From IMG/VR virus record IMGVR_UViG_3300045988_028050, positions 1 through 40,250 of that record: DNA of 40,250 nucleotides. The stretch is one strand, 5' to 3'. Shown one piece after another: positions 2,286-29,558 of the stretch (position 1 is the first letter of the stretch; each line of letters opens with the position of its first letter). The translations under genes and the position numbers were made by a program. The notes under the pieces are model-generated. The model was not told the DNA's origin and did no database searches. It saw only the letters and a list, made by a program, of their open reading frames with translations. The stretch is from a virus.

Positions 2286-4304
2286 TTACCCCTTTACTCG
2301 TGCGTATGCGGCCAACGACTGGTCTACCCAGCGGCCTGTCGCGCTGTTTGGCGCCCCCAGCGTAAAGTCCTTCGCCGCCGTCGCGCGGGTGTAGTCCTCG
2401 ATAGCCTGGATGTTGCCGATCATACCAGTAGCAATAAACGCAGAGACAATAGCCTGTGCAAGCTGCGGAGACATATTTGCAAACGTTTGCGCCACGGCTT
2501 GCTGGATGGTTTCCAGTGGAGCTTCAACGTTTGTCCCGTGCTTTTGGTCTCCCAGCACGGCAAGAAATTCGCGGTTGGGAGGGATAACAGCGCCCTGCGC
2601 CAGACGGGGGATTTTAAGCTCGTTTACATGGGAAATATTGATGCCGAAGGATTTACCGCCGATACCCGGTATCCAATCCGGGATTTCAAAGTGTATCTTG
2701 TTCAGCTGGTCAATAAGCCAGTTGATACCTTTGATGATAAGGTTTACAGCCGCTTCCAAAACGCCGGCGATGGTATTCCAAATGCCCCGGAAAATTTCTT
2801 TGATACCTTCCCACGCTTTTTTCCAGTCCAGCGTAAACACGCCGGTCAGGAAATCAATAAGGCCGCCAAAGATTTGCTTGACACCATCGATAACATCGCT
2901 GACATAGGTTTTCGCCAGTTCAATGATTTCGTGAAAACGTCCGTTTGTTTTTCCGTCCAGCCAGTCCAGCAGACTTGTTAGACCCAGTTTAAACCAGTCA
3001 AAAATTCCAAACACAAATGTTTTCACGCCGGTAAGCATTTGGATAACCGACTGTTTCATTTTTTCTAAGTCGCCTGTCAGTATGCCGGAAATAAGCCCCA
3101 GCGCGCCCTGCACAATGCCCTTGATACCAGTCAACATATCTCCTACCGGAGTACCGGCAAGGCCGCACTTTTCTATTATGGTGTCTATGATCGCTCCAAA
3201 AATATACCCCACAAAGTCCAGCAAATCGGCCAGCAAAATACGGGCGTGGTTTACAAAGTTGATGATGTTGTCCAGCGCTGCGCCCCAATCTCCGGAGAAT
3301 ACGTTGCCGATAAACCCAGTGACATCCTTAAACAGGTTTACAATGTCCTGCCCGATCTTCTTGAACTTGTCCGCGATTTTATCAAGAAATGCGAAATTTG
3401 CCGCTGTGCTGAAATCCGGTAGAATAATGCCGGATCCGCCGCCACCTTCGCCGCTTAACTTGTTGATCTCATCAAACGACGCAAGCTGCTTACTGGCAGA
3501 CTTTGCCGCGCCTCCCACGCCCTTATATGCGTTTTTTTGGTCATTCAGGGATTTTGCCGCATTGGCGCTTTCCTTTGCCGTTGTTCCAAATAGGGCGGAT
3601 ACAATATTTGCGATAAACGAAACCACCGTAGCCAGTACCTTAACCAGCGCAGTAAACGCCGGGATAATGATCTGCACAAGCGGCTGTGCCAGCGTCAGCA
3701 GCGCACCCTTGAGCTGCGCAATAGCGTCTCGTGCTTCGCCGTTTACGGCCACCACGTCCGCCAGCCAATCCCGGATGGCCGCCAACGCACGGGCAATGAT
3801 GGTAAAGACCAGCGCACGCTTTGCCAGCATTTTTACGCGCTTCGTGAATGCCTCCATGCCCTTGGATGCTTTGTCCAACCCCTCTTGTATTTTACCGGCG
3901 TTTTTTCCGGTGTTGCCAAGCTGCTTACCTAACTCCCCTGCTTTTGCTTTTATACGGTCAAGCTCTGCTTCACCGTCACGGATAGAGGCGTTCTGCTTGT
4001 CCAATTTATCATTCATGGCGTTCCATTCTTTTTCCATAGACGCTACAGCTGCCTCCTGCTGCTTGATAGCATCACTGGTGAAGAACTTGCCGCCGCCCTT
4101 CATTTGCGCCAGCTTGGCCTTTGCTTCGTCAAGCTGTGCGCCCAAGTTGTTGGCTTGGTTAAACAAAGTATCTCGCGCGGATTTCTTGTTGGTGAGCTTT
4201 TCCTGCAGCGCTTCTATTTTCTTTTCCAGCGCATTGAGTTCTTTCTGCGCTTGCTTATCGTCAATGTCGGCCTTGATGATAACGGAGCCGTCCGCGTTTG
4301 CCAT
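2286..4304 (-). CDS. Tail tape measure protein, 672 aa
   Basis: Long coiled-coil N-terminus (KQAQKELNALEKKIEALQEKL...), Gly/Ala/Ile-rich hydrophobic repeats, and a position after the tail chaperones. Confidence 0.9.
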   Translation of the reverse strand: MANADGSVIIKADIDDKQAQKELNALEKKIEALQEKLTNKKSARDTLFNQANNLGAQLDEAKAKLAQMKGGGKFFTSDAIKQQEAAVASMEKEWNAMNDKLDKQNASIRDGEAELDRIKAKAGELGKQLGNTGKNAGKIQEGLDKASKGMEAFTKRVKMLAKRALVFTIIARALAAIRDWLADVVAVNGEARDAIAQLKGALLTLAQPLVQIIIPAFTALVKVLATVVSFIANIVSALFGTTAKESANAAKSLNDQKNAYKGVGGAAKSASKQLASFDEINKLSGEGGGGSGIILPDFSTAANFAFLDKIADKFKKIGQDIVNLFKDVTGFIGNVFSGDWGAALDNIINFVNHARILLADLLDFVGYIFGAIIDTIIEKCGLAGTPVGDMLTGIKGIVQGALGLISGILTGDLEKMKQSVIQMLTGVKTFVFGIFDWFKLGLTSLLDWLDGKTNGRFHEIIELAKTYVSDVIDGVKQIFGGLIDFLTGVFTLDWKKAWEGIKEIFRGIWNTIAGVLEAAVNLIIKGINWLIDQLNKIHFEIPDWIPGIGGKSFGINISHVNELKIPRLAQGAVIPPNREFLAVLGDQKHGTNVEAPLETIQQAVAQTFANMSPQLAQAIVSAFIATGMIGNIQAIEDYTRATAAKDFTLGAPNSATGRWVDQSLAAYARVKG

Positions 4305-4316
4305 ATAATCACCTAC

Positions 4317-4345
4317 TTGCTTTTATGGTATTTATGTGGTACTAT
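4317..4345 (+). promoter_or_regulatory. Sigma-70-like promoter of the reverse-oriented moron
   Basis: TTGCTT (4317-4322), a 17-nt spacer, then TGgTACTAT extended -10 (hexamer 4340-4345), 40 nt upstream of the RBS GGAGGGTGG. Confidence 0.55.
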
Positions 4346-4384
4346 AAACAAACCACAAAAAAACTTCTTGGAGGGTGGAAGAAA

Positions 4385-4999
4385 ATGGATAAAATGACTA
4401 AGTGTAAGACCTGCGGCGCAGATATTGCAAAATCCGCGAAAACATGCCCAGTTTGCGGGGCCAAACAGAAAAAGCCGGTCGTGCTGATCGTTATAGCTGT
4501 GTTTATTGCTATCGGCATTATTGGCACCGCGCTTGGCGGTAGCTCCCCAGAAAAGGTGGGGACTACAGACGAAAAACCAGGAAACGGATCATCTGATTCG
4601 CAGAAAACGGAATTTGCAGTTGGTGACGTTGTATCTCTTAAAGACATTGAAGTCACATTTGTGTCTTGCACCCAATCAAGCGGAGAAGGTTTTTACACAC
4701 CAGACAGCGGCAACGTGTTTCTATTTTGCGAATTTGCCATTGAAAACAAATCCAGCAAAGATATTTCCATAAGCTCTATAATGTCTTTTGAAGCGTATGT
4801 CGATGACTACTCCACAAACATGAGCATGACCGGAACGTTGGCCGCAGACAAAGGTCAGTTGGACGGTACTGTTGCATCAGGGAAAAAGATGTCCGGCGTA
4901 ATAGGCTACGAAGTACCAGCAGATTGGAAAACGATTGAAATCAGATTTACCCCGGATTTTTGGTCTGGAAACGACATTACATTTATTGCGAATCACTGA
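4385..4999 (+). CDS. Zinc-ribbon / single-TM / DUF4352-like extracytoplasmic protein (moron)
   Basis: ATG 4385 is preceded by GGAGGGTGGAAGAAA. CKTCGADI..CPVCGAK zinc ribbon, TM VVLIVIAVFIAIGIIGTAL, and a beta-rich C-terminus (FLFCEFAIENKS..ISSIMSFEAYVDD..GVIGYEVP) typical of DUF4352. The only plus-strand gene inside the tail module. Confidence 0.75.
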   Translation: MDKMTKCKTCGADIAKSAKTCPVCGAKQKKPVVLIVIAVFIAIGIIGTALGGSSPEKVGTTDEKPGNGSSDSQKTEFAVGDVVSLKDIEVTFVSCTQSSGEGFYTPDSGNVFLFCEFAIENKSSKDISISSIMSFEAYVDDYSTNMSMTGTLAADKGQLDGTVASGKKMSGVIGYEVPADWKTIEIRFTPDFWSGNDITFIANH

Positions 5000-5009
5000 C
5001 CGCTACGCA

Positions 5010-5033
5010 GCCGCCTTCCGGGGCGGCTTTTTT
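5010..5033 (+). terminator. Intrinsic terminator after the moron
   Basis: GCCGCC-ttccgg-GGCGGC followed by TTTTTT (5028-5033). Confidence 0.8.
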
Positions 5034-5577
5034 ACGTCCAGCCCTTAATGACTTCTTCCTCCGCCTCCGAGTACCTGCGCTTAATGTCGATAGCGTCTCG
5101 GTTTCTGCGGTAAAACTCCTTGTCGGATTTGTCTTTTAGCTTGCCCTTTGCTTTTAAGTCTCGGATCCTCACGATTTGGGCAAAGTAGCAATCCCCGATT
5201 TCTCCGTAGTATGAAAGAAACGTCCACCAATGCAGATACGGCACCGCCCGCACCTCCTGCCCCGCTATGCGGTTGATAGGGGCGATGAGCAGTTGAAAGT
5301 CCTGTTCCCAGTCCATCAATTTGGTTGATTTTTTTTGCGTTTCCTCATTTCCGCCGTTGATAAACCAAAAGCACTGTTTTATCGCTTCTTCCACGTGCTC
5401 CCCAGGCATGGTGAAAAACCCGGGGTAAAACATTCCCAAAACGCCGATGCACTTTTCTTCGCTCGTTAGTTCAACAGCAGACAGCACCGAGAATATGTCC
5501 AGTATCACGCGGAAATCCGTTTCTATTGGGTATTCCGTTCCACACACCTCAAGGCTCGTTGGAAGGTCGTACATCAT
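5032..5577 (-). CDS. Bacteriophage Gp15-family tail protein
   Basis: N-terminus MYDLPTSLEVCGTEYPIETDFRVILDIF matches my recollection of the Gp15 family. Lies just upstream of the tape measure. Confidence 0.65.
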   Translation of the reverse strand: MMYDLPTSLEVCGTEYPIETDFRVILDIFSVLSAVELTSEEKCIGVLGMFYPGFFTMPGEHVEEAIKQCFWFINGGNEETQKKSTKLMDWEQDFQLLIAPINRIAGQEVRAVPYLHWWTFLSYYGEIGDCYFAQIVRIRDLKAKGKLKDKSDKEFYRRNRDAIDIKRRYSEAEEEVIKGWT

Positions 5578-27234: not shown

Positions 27235-27263
27235 ATTATACCCTAACTTAGGGCATCTGTCAA
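27235..27263 (-). promoter_or_regulatory. Consensus lytic promoter
   Basis: Minus-strand read: TTGACA (27263-27258), 17 nt, TATAAT (27240-27235). The 13-bp palindrome CCCTAAcTTAGGG fills the spacer. Confidence 0.8.
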
Positions 27264-27298
27264 CCGAATTTAGGGTGTCAAAATGCACTAAATTAGGG
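27241..27298. promoter_or_regulatory. TTAGGG operator set
   Basis: CCCTAAcTTAGGG (27241-27253), AATTTAGGGTG (TTAGGG at 27270-27275) and AAATTAGGGTT (TTAGGG at 27293-27298). The 11-mer AAATTAGGGTT recurs at 28847-28857. Confidence 0.6.
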
Positions 27299-27308
27299 TT
27301 CTGTTTTT

Positions 27309-27665
27309 ATGAGTTTTACCAATAATTTTAACTACGCTTTAGAGCAGCGCGAATATTCTGCGTACAGATTTGCAAAAATTATAGGAGTAAACGGTCAATC
27401 TGTCGCAAACTGGAAAGCGGGCACTGTAATTCCGCACCCCAAAACGCGCCAAAAAATAGCCGAGCATTTCGGCATTACGCTTGCGGAGCTGGACGGTGAC
27501 GAACTGCCCGTCCTGCCGCCGGAAGGCGCAAAAAAAGCCCCCGCCGCAAAGGGCGAGGACGAAGCAAAGCTTGCACAATTTGTAGACGGCTTTATGCGCC
27601 TTACTCCTCAACAAAAGGATACTGTGCTTGCTCTAATAAAAGGCTTTCTACAAGATCAAGCATAA
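27309..27665 (+). CDS. CI-like XRE-family repressor
   Basis: N-terminal HTH (EYSAYRFAKIIGVNGQSVANWKAG), a flexible linker and a short C-terminal helix. First gene of the plus-strand lysogeny module. Confidence 0.8.
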   Translation: MSFTNNFNYALEQREYSAYRFAKIIGVNGQSVANWKAGTVIPHPKTRQKIAEHFGITLAELDGDELPVLPPEGAKKAPAAKGEDEAKLAQFVDGFMRLTPQQKDTVLALIKGFLQDQA

Positions 27666-27729
27666 CGTCTTTTTGCTCCGGGGTTAGCATCATAAAAAGT
27701 GCGGCTGCCATTTTTACCTGGTTGTCCAT
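27601..27729 (-). CDS. Antisense micro-ORF, 42 aa, resembling the repressor C-terminal tail
   Basis: ATG 27729 is preceded by AAAGGGGAAAGAA. Hand translation gives MDNQVKMAAALFMMLTPEQKDVMLDLVESLLLEQAQYPFVEE. Overlaps the last 65 nt of the repressor gene in antisense. Confidence 0.35.
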   Translation of the reverse strand: MDNQVKMAAALFMMLTPEQKDVMLDLVESLLLEQAQYPFVEE

Positions 27730-27858
27730 TTCTTTCCCCTTTCTTAATTTGACATATTATTTTCTCGGTGTACAACTAAGTTAGTACACTTATAGTTACG
27801 CACACGCTGTTTGTTGCCCACAAATGGGCAACACATTGAAAATTTTTGGGGGGCTAAA

Positions 27859-28755
27859 ATGAAAAGGCATCGTAAACTAAAGGCTGTAGTTATTTTTGTT
27901 CTCACTTTGTTTTTTACCATTATAGCGTTGTTGCTCATTCCTTTCGCAAGTGTGCCACAAGAAGACGGAACGGCAATGCTTACTTATGGCGCGACCGCAG
28001 CTCTTATTATTGTCCCGTCCGCGTTTACAGCATTGTTTGTGTGGATTGATAAGCGCGTTGAAAAAGCAAGCTTGCCGCAAGAGCCTTTTATTACTGCCAA
28101 TGGCAAAGCCCACGATCCGCTCATACCGGATGCAATAAAAGTAGTCATGGAAACCGGGCAAGCGTCCGTTTCTATGCTGCAGCGTAAGCTCAATCTTGGG
28201 TATTCTCAAGCCTTACGATTGATCGACGAGATGGAAACGCTGGGTATTGTCGGCCCGTTCGAAGGTTCTCGGCCTCGGCAAATATTGCTTACGCGGTCAC
28301 AATGCGAAGCGCTTATTCCAACGCTTAAGATTGCCCGCGCAAATTCATGTTTCGCGCCTTGTGAAGCAAGCAATCCGGACGCGGAGCTATACAAAATAGA
28401 TGGAATGGAAGGGCACGATTTTGAGTATTGGTGTGCAGACCTTCTAAAGAAAAACGGTTTTTCCAATGTTGAAGTCACACGTGGCAGCGGAGATCAGGGC
28501 GTTGACGTCCTTGCTAAATTTGGCGATGCCAAATATGCCATTCAATGTAAGTGCTATTCTTTCGATTTAGGAAACAAGCCGGTGCAGGAAGTAAATGCTG
28601 GAAAAGCATTTTACCATTGTCATATTGGGGTTGTAATGACAAATAGGTATTTTACAGCAGGCGCGAAAGAAATTGCGGAAGCAACCGGCGTTTTGCTGTG
28701 GGATAGGGACACGCTTAAGCGCTTGATTAAAAATGGGGGGCGTAATGATGATTAA
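27859..28755 (+). CDS. Membrane-anchored FtsK-gamma (winged helix) + Mrr_cat (PD-(D/E)xK) nuclease fusion
   Basis: Two N-terminal TM helices. DPLIPDAIKVVMETGQASVSMLQRKLNLGYSQALRLIDEMETLGIVGPFEGSRPRQILL is an FtsK/SpoIIIE gamma domain. GHDFEYWCADLL..GSGDQGVDVLA..AIQCKCY..VVMTNRYFT is an Mrr-type nuclease core. Confidence 0.8.
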   Translation: MKRHRKLKAVVIFVLTLFFTIIALLLIPFASVPQEDGTAMLTYGATAALIIVPSAFTALFVWIDKRVEKASLPQEPFITANGKAHDPLIPDAIKVVMETGQASVSMLQRKLNLGYSQALRLIDEMETLGIVGPFEGSRPRQILLTRSQCEALIPTLKIARANSCFAPCEASNPDAELYKIDGMEGHDFEYWCADLLKKNGFSNVEVTRGSGDQGVDVLAKFGDAKYAIQCKCYSFDLGNKPVQEVNAGKAFYHCHIGVVMTNRYFTAGAKEIAEATGVLLWDRDTLKRLIKNGGRNDD

Positions 28756-28766
28756 AGCAAGCAAAT

Positions 28767-28806
28767 AGCCCCGCTGCTCCCGCAACGGACAGCGGGGCTA
28801 TTTTGC
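28767..28806 (+). terminator. Intrinsic terminator after the nuclease gene
   Basis: AGCCCCGCTG, a 13-nt loop, CAGCGGGGCT, then ATTTTG. Confidence 0.8.
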
Positions 28807-28856
28807 CGGTGGCCTCCCGGCTTTCCGGCTGCACGTTCACACTAACAAATTAGGGT

Positions 28857-28885
28857 TTGGCAGGGCAATACCAAATTCGGATAAT
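28857..28885 (+). promoter_or_regulatory. Candidate promoter of the HTH-TM / integrase operon, overlapped by a TTAGGG operator
   Basis: TTGGCA (28857-28862), a 17-nt spacer, GATAAT (28880-28885). AAATTAGGGTT (28847-28857) abuts the -35. Confidence 0.55.
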
Positions 28886-28946: not shown

Positions 28947-29558
28947 ATGGTAAAAACATTGCAGGATTTGTGCAGGGATGCAAAAGACCGACAGAATTTA
29001 ACTATACAAGATTTGTCCGACATGACGGACATTTCAGCATCAACCATAAGCAATTTTTTCTCCGCATCATCAAAGGAGCCGAGCGTGTACAAAATGGGTT
29101 TAATTTGTGCCGCGCTTGGCGTTTCGATGGACGAATATTTCGGGATTGAAAAAGAAGTGACAACGGAAGATCAATTGACGAAAGCCAATGAACAGCTGAA
29201 GCATCAAAAGCAGCTGCATGATGCCGATGTGCAGATAGCCCATCTTGAGGGCAGCATGGAGCAGATGGCAAAAACCATTAACTACCATCGCAAGAAATCG
29301 CGGGACACAAAATTTGCTATTTATGGCCTTACGCTTTTGTGCGCCATATTTATGGCTGTTATCGTGGGATATATCTTTTTTGACTACCACATTCCCCATA
29401 AGGGGCTTATTCAGGGCGGGCAAGCTGGTGTATTTGCATGGATTGTCTTTTTGCTTCTTGCCGCCGGTATTGGCATTTTTGCCGCTATTTTGATGATGTA
29501 TTTGCGCTATGCAAAGAAGTATACATTGTCGCCAGATAAGGGAGGAGATGAACAATGA
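28947..29558 (+). CDS. Membrane-anchored XRE-family HTH protein (HTH, coiled coil, two C-terminal TM helices)
   Basis: LTIQDLSDMTDISASTISNFFS is an HTH. TMs are FAIYGLTLLCAIFMAVIVGYIFF and VFAWIVFLLLAAGIGIFAAILMMY. Its stop overlaps the integrase ATG (ATGA). Confidence 0.75.
   Translation: MVKTLQDLCRDAKDRQNLTIQDLSDMTDISASTISNFFSASSKEPSVYKMGLICAALGVSMDEYFGIEKEVTTEDQLTKANEQLKHQKQLHDADVQIAHLEGSMEQMAKTINYHRKKSRDTKFAIYGLTLLCAIFMAVIVGYIFFDYHIPHKGLIQGGQAGVFAWIVFLLLAAGIGIFAAILMMYLRYAKKYTLSPDKGGDEQ

Follow-up and report, generated by a model that had tools for sequence, protein, structure and literature searches.

A prophage gene joining a membrane anchor, an FtsK gamma domain and an Mrr-type nuclease: a candidate exclusion nuclease of gut bacteria

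Results

A single gene encodes an anchor, a gamma domain and a nuclease domain

The phage genome analyzed here (IMG/VR virus record IMGVR_UViG_3300045988_028050, positions 1 to 40,250; this whole stretch of 40,250 nucleotides is called the window) carries a gene for a 298-amino-acid (aa) protein composed of a transmembrane (TM) hairpin, an FtsK gamma winged-helix domain and an Mrr-type nuclease domain. A sequence-only reading of the same DNA had singled out positions 27749-28806 as a self-contained cassette and a candidate new exclusion or defense gene, and this span holds a single gene plus its flanking signals (Table 1). The three-module anatomy proposed there is confirmed by Pfam, hydropathy, AlphaFold2 and Foldseek, with both Pfam matches being full length. 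The longest frame opens at a TTG codon at 27811, and in all close homologues the protein starts at MKR. An AlphaFold2 model built with 38 aligned homologues has a mean predicted local distance difference test (pLDDT) score of 85.9, with low-confidence linkers (pLDDT <50) on both sides of the gamma domain at aa 71-78 and 160-169.

The nuclease domain is recognized by the Mrr_cat profile (PF04471) at 104.8 bits against a cut-off of 21, and profile positions 1-115 of 115 are covered. The catalytic GDQGVD and QCK elements described as intact are indeed present, at aa 211-216 and 229-231 respectively, and residues E189, D216, Q229 and K231 are invariant among the 38 aligned homologues. Similarly, the aspartate, glutamine and lysine are at least 90% conserved among the best 80 of at least 549 genome loci. 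When the C-terminal half was compared with the PDB by Foldseek, the Mrr-like nucleases MspJI (E=2.8e-6), AspBHI and AF1548 were retrieved, and AF1548 superimposes on the AlphaFold2 model with a root-mean-square deviation (rmsd) of 2.8 Å over 120 columns. By sequence and model, the window protein belongs to the Mrr_cat nuclease superfamily: the E...D...(Q/E)xK residues and a restriction-endonuclease-like fold are present, and cleavage is predicted. An inactive nuclease was considered and rejected, because the NA-iREase1 match (E=2.7e-8) is far weaker than that to Mrr_cat and the catalytic residues are intact.

Four cysteines, C192, C230, C232 and C254 (window 28432-28620), are invariant or nearly so in the gamma-bearing subfamily, where they occur in the QCKCY sequence flanking the catalytic lysine and in the first helix of the Mrr domain. 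Other members of the Mrr clade have N, R or H in place of C232, and the idea that the four residues hold an iron-sulfur or metal cluster was dropped because such replacements are frequent in the clade.

The middle domain matches FtsK gamma domains of known structure both by sequence (2ve8/2j5o at 5e-11 in a PDB search) and by fold, with a Foldseek TM-score of 0.91 and an rmsd of 1.2 Å to 2ve9, the FtsK gamma domain bound to FtsK-orienting polar sequences (KOPS). Its identity to the corresponding domain of an Oscillospiraceae FtsK is 54%. The protein is not itself an FtsK, since the alpha/beta RecA-like motor (PF01580, PF17854) has no Pfam match in it and 298 aa leave no room for one. Unrelated phages commonly have FtsK gamma domains as well (101 mycobacteriophage, 23 Pseudomonas and 12 Gordonia phage records), in genes whose annotations read RusA-like resolvase, RdgC, 'FtsK-like translocase' or sliding clamp. 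It thus seems that phage proteins for DNA processing have often adopted this domain as a module for binding DNA.

In the AlphaFold2 model, helices 2-25 and 43-70 are arranged as a helical hairpin. Five lysines or arginines precede the first TM segment and three follow the second, whereas the loop of 17 residues has none, so by the positive-inside rule both termini, and with them both soluble domains, are predicted to be cytoplasmic. The same predicted topology fits 52 of 52 homologues with two TM segments; the sequence-only reading had asked whether both soluble domains are cytoplasmic. No signal peptide or lipobox is evident in the window protein.

The family is large and its modules are permuted

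The architecture is not a singular design. A protein search returned 2,663 clusters with relatives, and all of the best 120 carry both domains in proteins of 224-512 aa; the few relatives that bear a name are called 'restriction endonuclease' (NCBI name). This very large protein family is already catalogued but unstudied. No NCBIfam model for the window protein was found, and PHROGs divides it between a gamma family and a family of unknown function.

In a scan of one genome per species, relatives were found in at least 549 species genomes, almost all of them Clostridia (Oscillospiraceae, Lachnospiraceae and Acutalibacteraceae). Among the best 80 of these loci, which were analyzed in detail, 79 have Mrr_cat and only 30 have FtsK_gamma, with the remainder carrying mostly membrane segments and uncharacterized regions. 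Hence the Mrr clade, recognizable by the sequence AIQCKCY, is a mobile nuclease module whose commonest identifiable partner is the gamma domain. Relatives are also present on 252 viral contigs of IMG/VR, and the best 80 of these fall into 23 clusters at 85% identity.

Modules were mapped in the 120 best protein clusters and the window protein, 121 sequences altogether. The arrangement of the window protein, TM-gamma-Mrr, is the commonest (56/121), followed by TM-Mrr-gamma (33/121), gamma-Mrr (17/121), Mrr-gamma-TM (6/121) and Mrr-gamma (5/121), and a few proteins have a duplicated domain (TM-Mrr-gamma-Mrr, 2/121; TM-Mrr-gamma-gamma, 1/121; Mrr-gamma-gamma, 1/121). A membrane segment outside both domains is present in 98 sequences (81%). 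The three modules have stayed together through repeated reshuffling, which argues that they are functionally coupled and that their association has been selected rather than being accidental. Conservation is uneven along the protein, with the nuclease reaching a mean pairwise identity of 68%, the gamma domain 54% and the anchor region 18%.

The gene occupies two accessory positions in prophages

In the window, the gene order is a Cro-like gene on the minus strand, a 118-aa XRE repressor, the gamma-Mrr gene, a 203-aa protein with a helix-turn-helix (HTH) and TM segments, and a serine recombinase, and this order recurs in close relatives. The window phage itself has been recovered many times. 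The placement between repressor and integrase, which the sequence-only reading had reported for the lysogeny strand of the window, is the usual one and is seen in many unrelated prophages as well, where the repressor is of the XRE or S24 type and the integrase a serine or tyrosine enzyme; examples include a RecT/YqaJ prophage integrated beside host genes and a Rep/ParAB element. In the cultured Roseburia phage Jekyll, a version with a Zn-ribbon, a TM2 domain and Mrr lies between an Xre/ImmA-type pair and a serine integrase.

Neighborhoods were sampled at 26 gamma-plus-Mrr loci from the species genomes, many of them cut by contig ends, giving 89 neighboring genes. Within two genes on either side there are 8 tyrosine integrases, 5 serine recombinases, 10 HTH_3 proteins and 6 Peptidase_S24 proteins, and neither a methyltransferase nor any other recurrent partner is among the top families of these neighbors. 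Across the genome loci, the homologues reside mostly in prophages and not in segregation or sporulation loci, with 3 of 80 adjoining ftsK.

A second position is found in sister phages that share the tail module of the window. There the gene stands alone on the opposite strand, between Phage_Gp15 and a coiled-coil tape-measure-like gene (loci L094, L113, which represents 21 contigs, and L148, representing 18 contigs). Based on the two placements, the gene moves as a self-contained cassette between moron hotspots. We conclude that this gut-bacterial prophage carries the gene as a single-gene moron, an accessory gene equipped with expression signals of its own. The cassette character claimed for it is thereby upheld by its terminator, the lack of a recurrent partner or methyltransferase and the two hotspots, and is supported more strongly by placement than by local DNA motifs.

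The corresponding tail slot of the window holds another moron within an AT-richer patch, a gene for a 233-aa protein with a Zn-ribbon and DUF4352/DUF5067 (4298-4999, plus strand). This gene is flanked by Phage_Gp15 (5032-5577, minus strand) and a 672-aa coiled-coil tape-measure-like gene (2286-4304, minus strand), and it is this slot that a TM-(gamma)-Mrr gene occupies in L094, L113 and L148. At another locus (L010), a DUF4352 gene directly follows the gamma-Mrr gene.

Two further associations were considered and rejected. The 203-aa HTH-TM gene, whose stop codon overlaps the start of the serine recombinase gene, is confined to the lineage of the window phage, and other loci have different intervening genes or none, so it is not a conserved partner; its product appears to be a membrane-anchored regulator. 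An association with defense islands was dropped after a PADLOC scan of 78 neighboring proteins gave only repressor-like HTH/M78 matches and singletons.

Residues and motifs relevant to DNA polarity

Escherichia coli FtsK reads KOPS through residues N1296, R1300 and E1303 (PMC2533119). The equivalent positions of the window protein are S116, R120 and D123, and across the family the first is A or S, the second is R in 57% and the third is D in 88%; the Oscillospiraceae FtsK gamma domain compared has A/R/D. Judged by sequence, these residues resemble those of the compared Clostridial FtsK gamma domain and not those of the E. coli KOPS reader. The gamma domain may read a different motif, or none. 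KOPS (GGGNAGGG) occurs twice on the plus strand and twice on the minus strand of the 40-kb phage genome, the SpoIIIE recognition sequence (SRS; GAGAAGGG) occurs on neither strand, and counts of skewed 7- and 8-mers across the phage revealed coding-strand composition bias only, all of these counts having little power at 40 kb. The sequence-only reading had suggested that such a nuclease would spare a genome with the right motif polarity. With the KOPS-reading residues not fully kept and no KOPS or SRS bias seen in the phage, this claim is unsupported.

Flanking DNA

The coordinates of the gene and its surrounding features are collected in Table 1. The gene had been credited with regulatory DNA of its own, and the features named are all present, the leader hairpin being conserved and having 9 bp rather than 8. 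Nevertheless, TTGACA lacks a consensus -10 element, the palindrome is not conserved, and the 130 bp upstream are a divergent intergenic region common to the gamma-Mrr gene and a minus-strand gene for a 42-aa peptide.

Table 1. Features of the gamma-Mrr gene and its surroundings in the window
Feature	Position	Strand	Evidence or remark
Conserved 42-aa gene MDNQVKMAAALFMMLTPEQKDVMLDLVESLLLEQAQYPFVEE	27601-27729	-	AAGGGGA ribosome-binding site; called by gene callers in every relative
Promoter-like site: TTGACA (27749-27754), 16-nt spacer, weak -10-like TACAAC (27771-27776)	27749-27776	+	Sequence; putative function
22-bp near-palindrome GTGTACAACTaAGTTaGTACAC	27768-27789		Overlaps promoter-like TGTACA-16-TATAGT (27769-27796)
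Leader hairpin, perfect 9 bp, 4-nt loop; T-run and ribosome-binding site follow	27812-27833	+	27812-27820 pairs with 27825-27833
Ribosome-binding site GGGGGG	27848-27853	+	5 nt before ATG; read from sequence; kept in relatives
Coding sequence, TM hairpin + FtsK gamma + Mrr nuclease	27859-28755	+	ATG start, 298 aa
Membrane anchor: TM1 (aa 9-27), short acidic outside loop, TM2 (aa 45-63)	27883-28047	+	Hydropathy, AlphaFold2
FtsK gamma winged-helix domain (aa 84-144)	28108-28290	+	Pfam E=7.8e-25, full length
Mrr_cat PD-(D/E)xK nuclease domain (aa 180-290)	28396-28728	+	Pfam E=3.7e-30, Foldseek
Catalytic codons D216; Q229-C230-K231	28504-28506; 28543-28551	+	Invariant in family
Intrinsic terminator: perfect 14-bp stem (28763-28776/28790-28803), 13-nt loop, T-run	28763-28806	+	8 nt past stop
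203-aa HTH-TM protein	28947-29558	+	N-terminal XRE HTH, C-terminal membrane helices, weak DUF2207_C-like match

The TTGACA site has no consensus -10 within 16-18 nt, and it does not satisfy the -10 rule of the promoter scan. A TTGAC followed by TAnnnN at 16 nt is kept upstream of the two relatives used for comparison, L090 (TTGACT-16-TAGAAT) and L092 (TTGACT-16-TATTGT), whose proteins are 80% and 67% identical to the window protein. Promoter-like matches in the region as a whole are at the level of chance (8 versus 5.5 +/- 2.2 in shuffled sequence). Near-palindromes of the kind found upstream number 2 in the 40-kb window versus 0.39 expected, which is statistically unusual. The one listed is not kept in either relative, and the idea of a conserved operator was rejected on this ground; an operator role is possible, if unsupported. 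The leader hairpin is kept in both, with a compensatory change from C-G to A-T and a longer T-run in L092, and it is missing upstream of the tail-module homologues. Perfect hairpins of at least 8 bp number 7 in the window versus 2.6 expected.

The strong terminator ascribed to the gene is confirmed by its perfect stem and T-run, and, being flanked by an A-tract, it could act in both directions. The claim that the gene is AT-richer than the phage backbone holds as stated (G+C of 0.458 versus 0.55-0.57), but this property is not specific to the gene. Low G+C is common to the repressor (0.476), the HTH-TM gene (0.435) and the integrase (0.453), and thus marks the whole lysogeny module from 27.0 to 30.9 kb, so we discarded AT-richness as the mark of a separate cassette.

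The 42-aa gene overlaps the final 65 bases of the repressor gene in antisense, has its substitutions at third codon positions of the minus frame, and is followed by a strong minus-strand terminator (27560-27537) within the repressor coding sequence. Its peptide resembles the C terminus of the repressor (FMRLTPQQKDTVLALIKGFL). The locus may produce an OOP-like antisense RNA, a small anti-repressor that mimics the C-terminal helix of the repressor, or both.

An operator-like repeat, AAATTAGGGT(T), is present as inverted copies in the Cro/repressor switch region (27240-27299), which also includes a perfect TTGACA-17-TATAAT promoter on the minus strand (27263-27235). Upstream of the HTH-TM/integrase pair the repeat occurs again (28847-28857), and there it overlaps a promoter-like TTGGCA-17-GATAAT (28857-28885). 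Its placement suggests that the integrase operon is under the control of the phage repressor or Cro.

Discussion

A nuclease that may act on incoming DNA at the membrane

By analogy with a known defense protein that is compared below, we propose that the gene encodes a single-gene exclusion nuclease that would cut incoming DNA at the membrane, a reading to which we assign a probability of roughly 45%. The broader statement, that this is a prophage-borne exclusion or defense nuclease of some mechanism, is reasonably probable. The gene is probably expressed in the lysogen, given its location on the repressor and integrase strand and the promoter-like site and terminator that belong to it. By prediction, the hairpin keeps the two soluble domains at the membrane on its cytoplasmic side, where the gamma domain, located in the tether between anchor and nuclease, would serve as a DNA-capturing module. 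The nuclease would then cut double-stranded DNA near the membrane, such as the genome of a superinfecting phage during injection, and superinfection exclusion or defense would result. The chromosome and the prophage would be spared mainly by confinement of the enzyme to the membrane, perhaps with auto-inhibition there, rather than by methylation or a sequence code. In addition, the highly variable anchor region may place the enzyme at entry sites.

Several points weigh against this proposal. Generic DNA binding leaves the consistent use of the FtsK gamma fold unexplained. No TM segment is predicted in 23 of the 121 close homologues (19%), the topology test is crude and ambiguous for homologues with a single TM segment, and the arrangement of the domains relative to each other is unreliable in the AlphaFold2 model (predicted TM-score 0.48). 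The neighbors, as judged by the PADLOC scan of 78 proteins, are not enriched for known defense genes, and the three genome loci adjoining ftsK/spoIIIE genes, two of which are one lineage, hint at a link with DNA translocases for which a simple model of cutting at entry sites has no need.

Alternative functions

The protein could instead be an Mrr or Type IV restriction enzyme in which the gamma domain is the recognition domain for a modification or a motif, and the anchor is secondary and only lowers self-damage. The succession of winged helix, linker and Mrr_cat mirrors that of E. coli Mrr, and the best structural matches, MspJI and AspBHI, are modification-dependent enzymes. A cognate methyltransferase is not found nearby, as Type IV enzymes predict, the base-reading positions of the gamma domain vary in the family as if specificities were diversifying, and the homologues without a TM segment would also be accommodated. 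However, Pfam finds no Mrr_N, SRA or similar modified-base reader in the window protein, FtsK_gamma being its only other domain, and we know of no FtsK gamma domain that reads modifications. Moreover, the anchor is kept in 81% of close homologues through every permutation, which argues that it is central. We therefore regard this explanation as unlikely, although it deserves consideration.

An abortive-infection effector is less probable. Such a protein would be stored at the membrane and released or activated on infection, by membrane perturbation or proteolysis, after which it would degrade host and phage DNA and kill the cell. The nuclease is conserved and predicted to be potent, no immunity partner is seen, and the predicted-disordered linkers on either side of the gamma domain could be cleaved. 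Removal of the TM segment makes the analogous protein SNIPE highly toxic (PMC13190303), an example of tethering that masks a lethal activity. On the other hand, neither a sensor domain nor a protease partner is seen, and an effector of this kind does not require a DNA-binding domain between its anchor and its nuclease.

The loci adjoining ftsK invite two explanations that involve DNA translocases. In L004 (8001-9266) and L029 (6765-8759), ftsK is immediately followed by a chromosomal gene of the TM-Mrr-gamma-gamma type, and the ClpP-like/YlzJ/FtsK neighborhood resembles the tepA-ylzJ-spoIIIE region of Bacillus subtilis; the L029 copy looks frameshifted. At one of these loci, the second gamma domain of the nuclease is 97% identical to that of the neighboring FtsK, and this sequence similarity suggests a recent duplication or gene conversion. 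At the third locus, L021 (7344-8828), a 494-aa Mrr-clade protein without TM segment or gamma domain is encoded between genes for FtsK-like proteins of 953 and 582 aa.

The more ambitious of the two is that the gamma domain lets the membrane nuclease discriminate DNA by the host's chromosome-polarity code, or dock on FtsK/SpoIIIE-like pumps. The enzyme would then police DNA crossing membranes, whether by phage injection, through conjugative double-stranded DNA pumps or at the septum, and would spare DNA carrying the resident FtsK-orienting motifs, with the ftsK-adjacent copy being an ancestral or domesticated form. We give this idea little credence, and keep it alive because the ftsK-adjacent copy exists. 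If true, it would constitute a new principle of distinguishing self from non-self.

The second is that the protein is a partner of FtsK/SpoIIIE-type translocases, with the gamma domain binding host FtsK-orienting motifs or docking on the pump and the nuclease processing DNA in transit through a septum or membrane during division, sporulation, or conjugative or phage DNA pumping. Both the ftsK-adjacent genes and the resemblance of the window gamma domain to that of an Oscillospiraceae FtsK would fit. Nevertheless, the great majority of loci are in prophage moron positions, it is not evident why a prophage should need a septal nuclease, and no KOPS or SRS bias is seen in the phage. This role seems distinctly improbable.

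A role as an accessory factor of integration or excision, with the gamma domain activating or directing the neighboring recombinase, is very improbable. The gene is often immediately upstream of an integrase on the same strand, and FtsK gamma is known to activate XerD, a tyrosine recombinase (PMC2965235). Yet both serine and tyrosine integrases, which are unrelated to each other, occur as neighbors, the gene is also found far from any integrase inside tail modules, and an invariant nuclease site and an anchor have no place in a directionality factor. Least probable of all is a surface or extracellular DNase that would act as a lysogenic-conversion factor by degrading environmental or biofilm DNA, for although prophage-encoded DNases exist in streptococci (PMC3258162) and members with one TM segment could in principle place the C terminus outside, the predicted topology of the window protein and its two-TM homologues is the opposite, no export signal is evident, and the invariant C192 and C230 suit a reducing cytoplasm.

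Significance

If the exclusion-nuclease reading is correct, nuclease defense at the site of entry has arisen on two or more occasions, each time with unrelated parts; its demonstration, for a single E. coli protein, dates only from 2026. The strategy would moreover be widespread among prophages of Oscillospiraceae and Lachnospiraceae, the dominant Gram-positive anaerobes of the gut. To our knowledge, almost no defense systems have been tested in gut anaerobes of this type. Because the family is large, the gene is single and compact and a relative exists in the cultured phage Jekyll, the proposal can be tested directly with point mutants and domain deletions. The free permutation of the three modules is, in effect, a natural experiment on which parts must stay together, and the use of FtsK gamma, together with the near-identical gamma domain beside ftsK, raises the testable question of whether a chromosome-polarity reader can be reused for immunity. 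Should the reading prove wrong, there would still be a highly conserved nuclease, so far unstudied, that hundreds of gut prophages carry.

Comparison with known systems

PADLOC assigns the window protein to no system. All 11 matches in PADLOC-DB v2 are limited to the Mrr domain, reflecting resemblance to ZorD, PDC-S02 and LmuA, and the best is to the C-terminal nuclease of ZorD (E=3.7e-19, positions 937-1061 of a 1,071-position model). We found no description of an architecture joining FtsK gamma to Mrr or another nuclease in the literature searched, most subscription-journal papers lying outside its coverage. To this extent the novelty put forward by the sequence-only reading stands, although the gene belongs to a large, catalogued family. 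The further statement that no characterized defense system is alike holds for the architecture, within the same literature, but not for its logic, which is that of SNIPE (below).

In type I Zorya, the ZorAB membrane complex recruits ZorD, which then degrades DNA close to the membrane (PMC12904381), and ZorD likewise has an Mrr-like nuclease. However, it is a soluble protein of about 1,070 aa in which the nuclease is fused to an SNF2 helicase, and it works together with ZorABC, whereas the window nuclease is itself anchored. Neither a helicase nor ZorABC is present at the window locus, where the neighbors are the repressor, the HTH-TM gene and the integrase.

The restriction enzymes Mrr, MspJI and AspBHI share with the window protein the Mrr_cat fold, the D...QxK site, the order of recognition domain followed by nuclease and the lack of a companion methyltransferase. 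They differ in that the recognition domain of the window protein is FtsK gamma rather than Mrr_N or SRA, and in its anchor and prophage moron context. FtsK and SpoIIIE have a gamma domain of the same fold and sequence signature, whereas the window protein has no alpha/beta motor, has S/R/D in place of N1296/R1300/E1303, and is fused to a nuclease. The 'putative restriction endonuclease' of Jekyll (LR596902, 42230-43072) is of the same Mrr clade, with AIQCKCY, and is likewise membrane-anchored and in the same position, but its anchor consists of a Zn-ribbon and a TM2 domain, and the gamma domain is missing.

The closest parallel in design is SNIPE of E. coli (Saxton et al., Nature 2026), in which a TM anchor is joined to the DNA-binding DUF4041 and a GIY-YIG nuclease, and which cuts lambda DNA during injection but not after prophage induction, self DNA being spared by location and not by sequence (PMC13190303). 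Like SNIPE, the window protein is a single polypeptide from a stand-alone gene, with an anchor, a DNA-binding middle and a C-terminal nuclease that is predicted here to be cytoplasmic. In SNIPE, conservation decreases from the nuclease to the DNA-binding domain and then to the N-terminal region, and 66% of homologues have one or two TM segments (PMC13190303); the window family shows the same gradient, and the proportion of homologues bearing TM segments ranges from two thirds (SNIPE) to four fifths (here). The parts are nevertheless non-homologous, DUF4041 and GIY-YIG in one and FtsK gamma and Mrr in the other. SNIPE has one TM segment with its N terminus outside, where the window protein has a two-helix hairpin; it functions in a Gram-negative host, binding ManYZ and tape-measure proteins; and in the window family domain order is freely permuted. 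Since neither DUF4041 nor GIY-YIG has a Pfam match in the window protein, it is an analogue of SNIPE and not a member of that system. Membrane localization, as in Zorya, Kiwa and SNIPE, has been recognized in a 2026 review as one specificity class of defense nucleases (PMC12904381). By this analogy, the window protein would be a membrane-localized defense nuclease, a system of a known kind that is built from unrelated parts.

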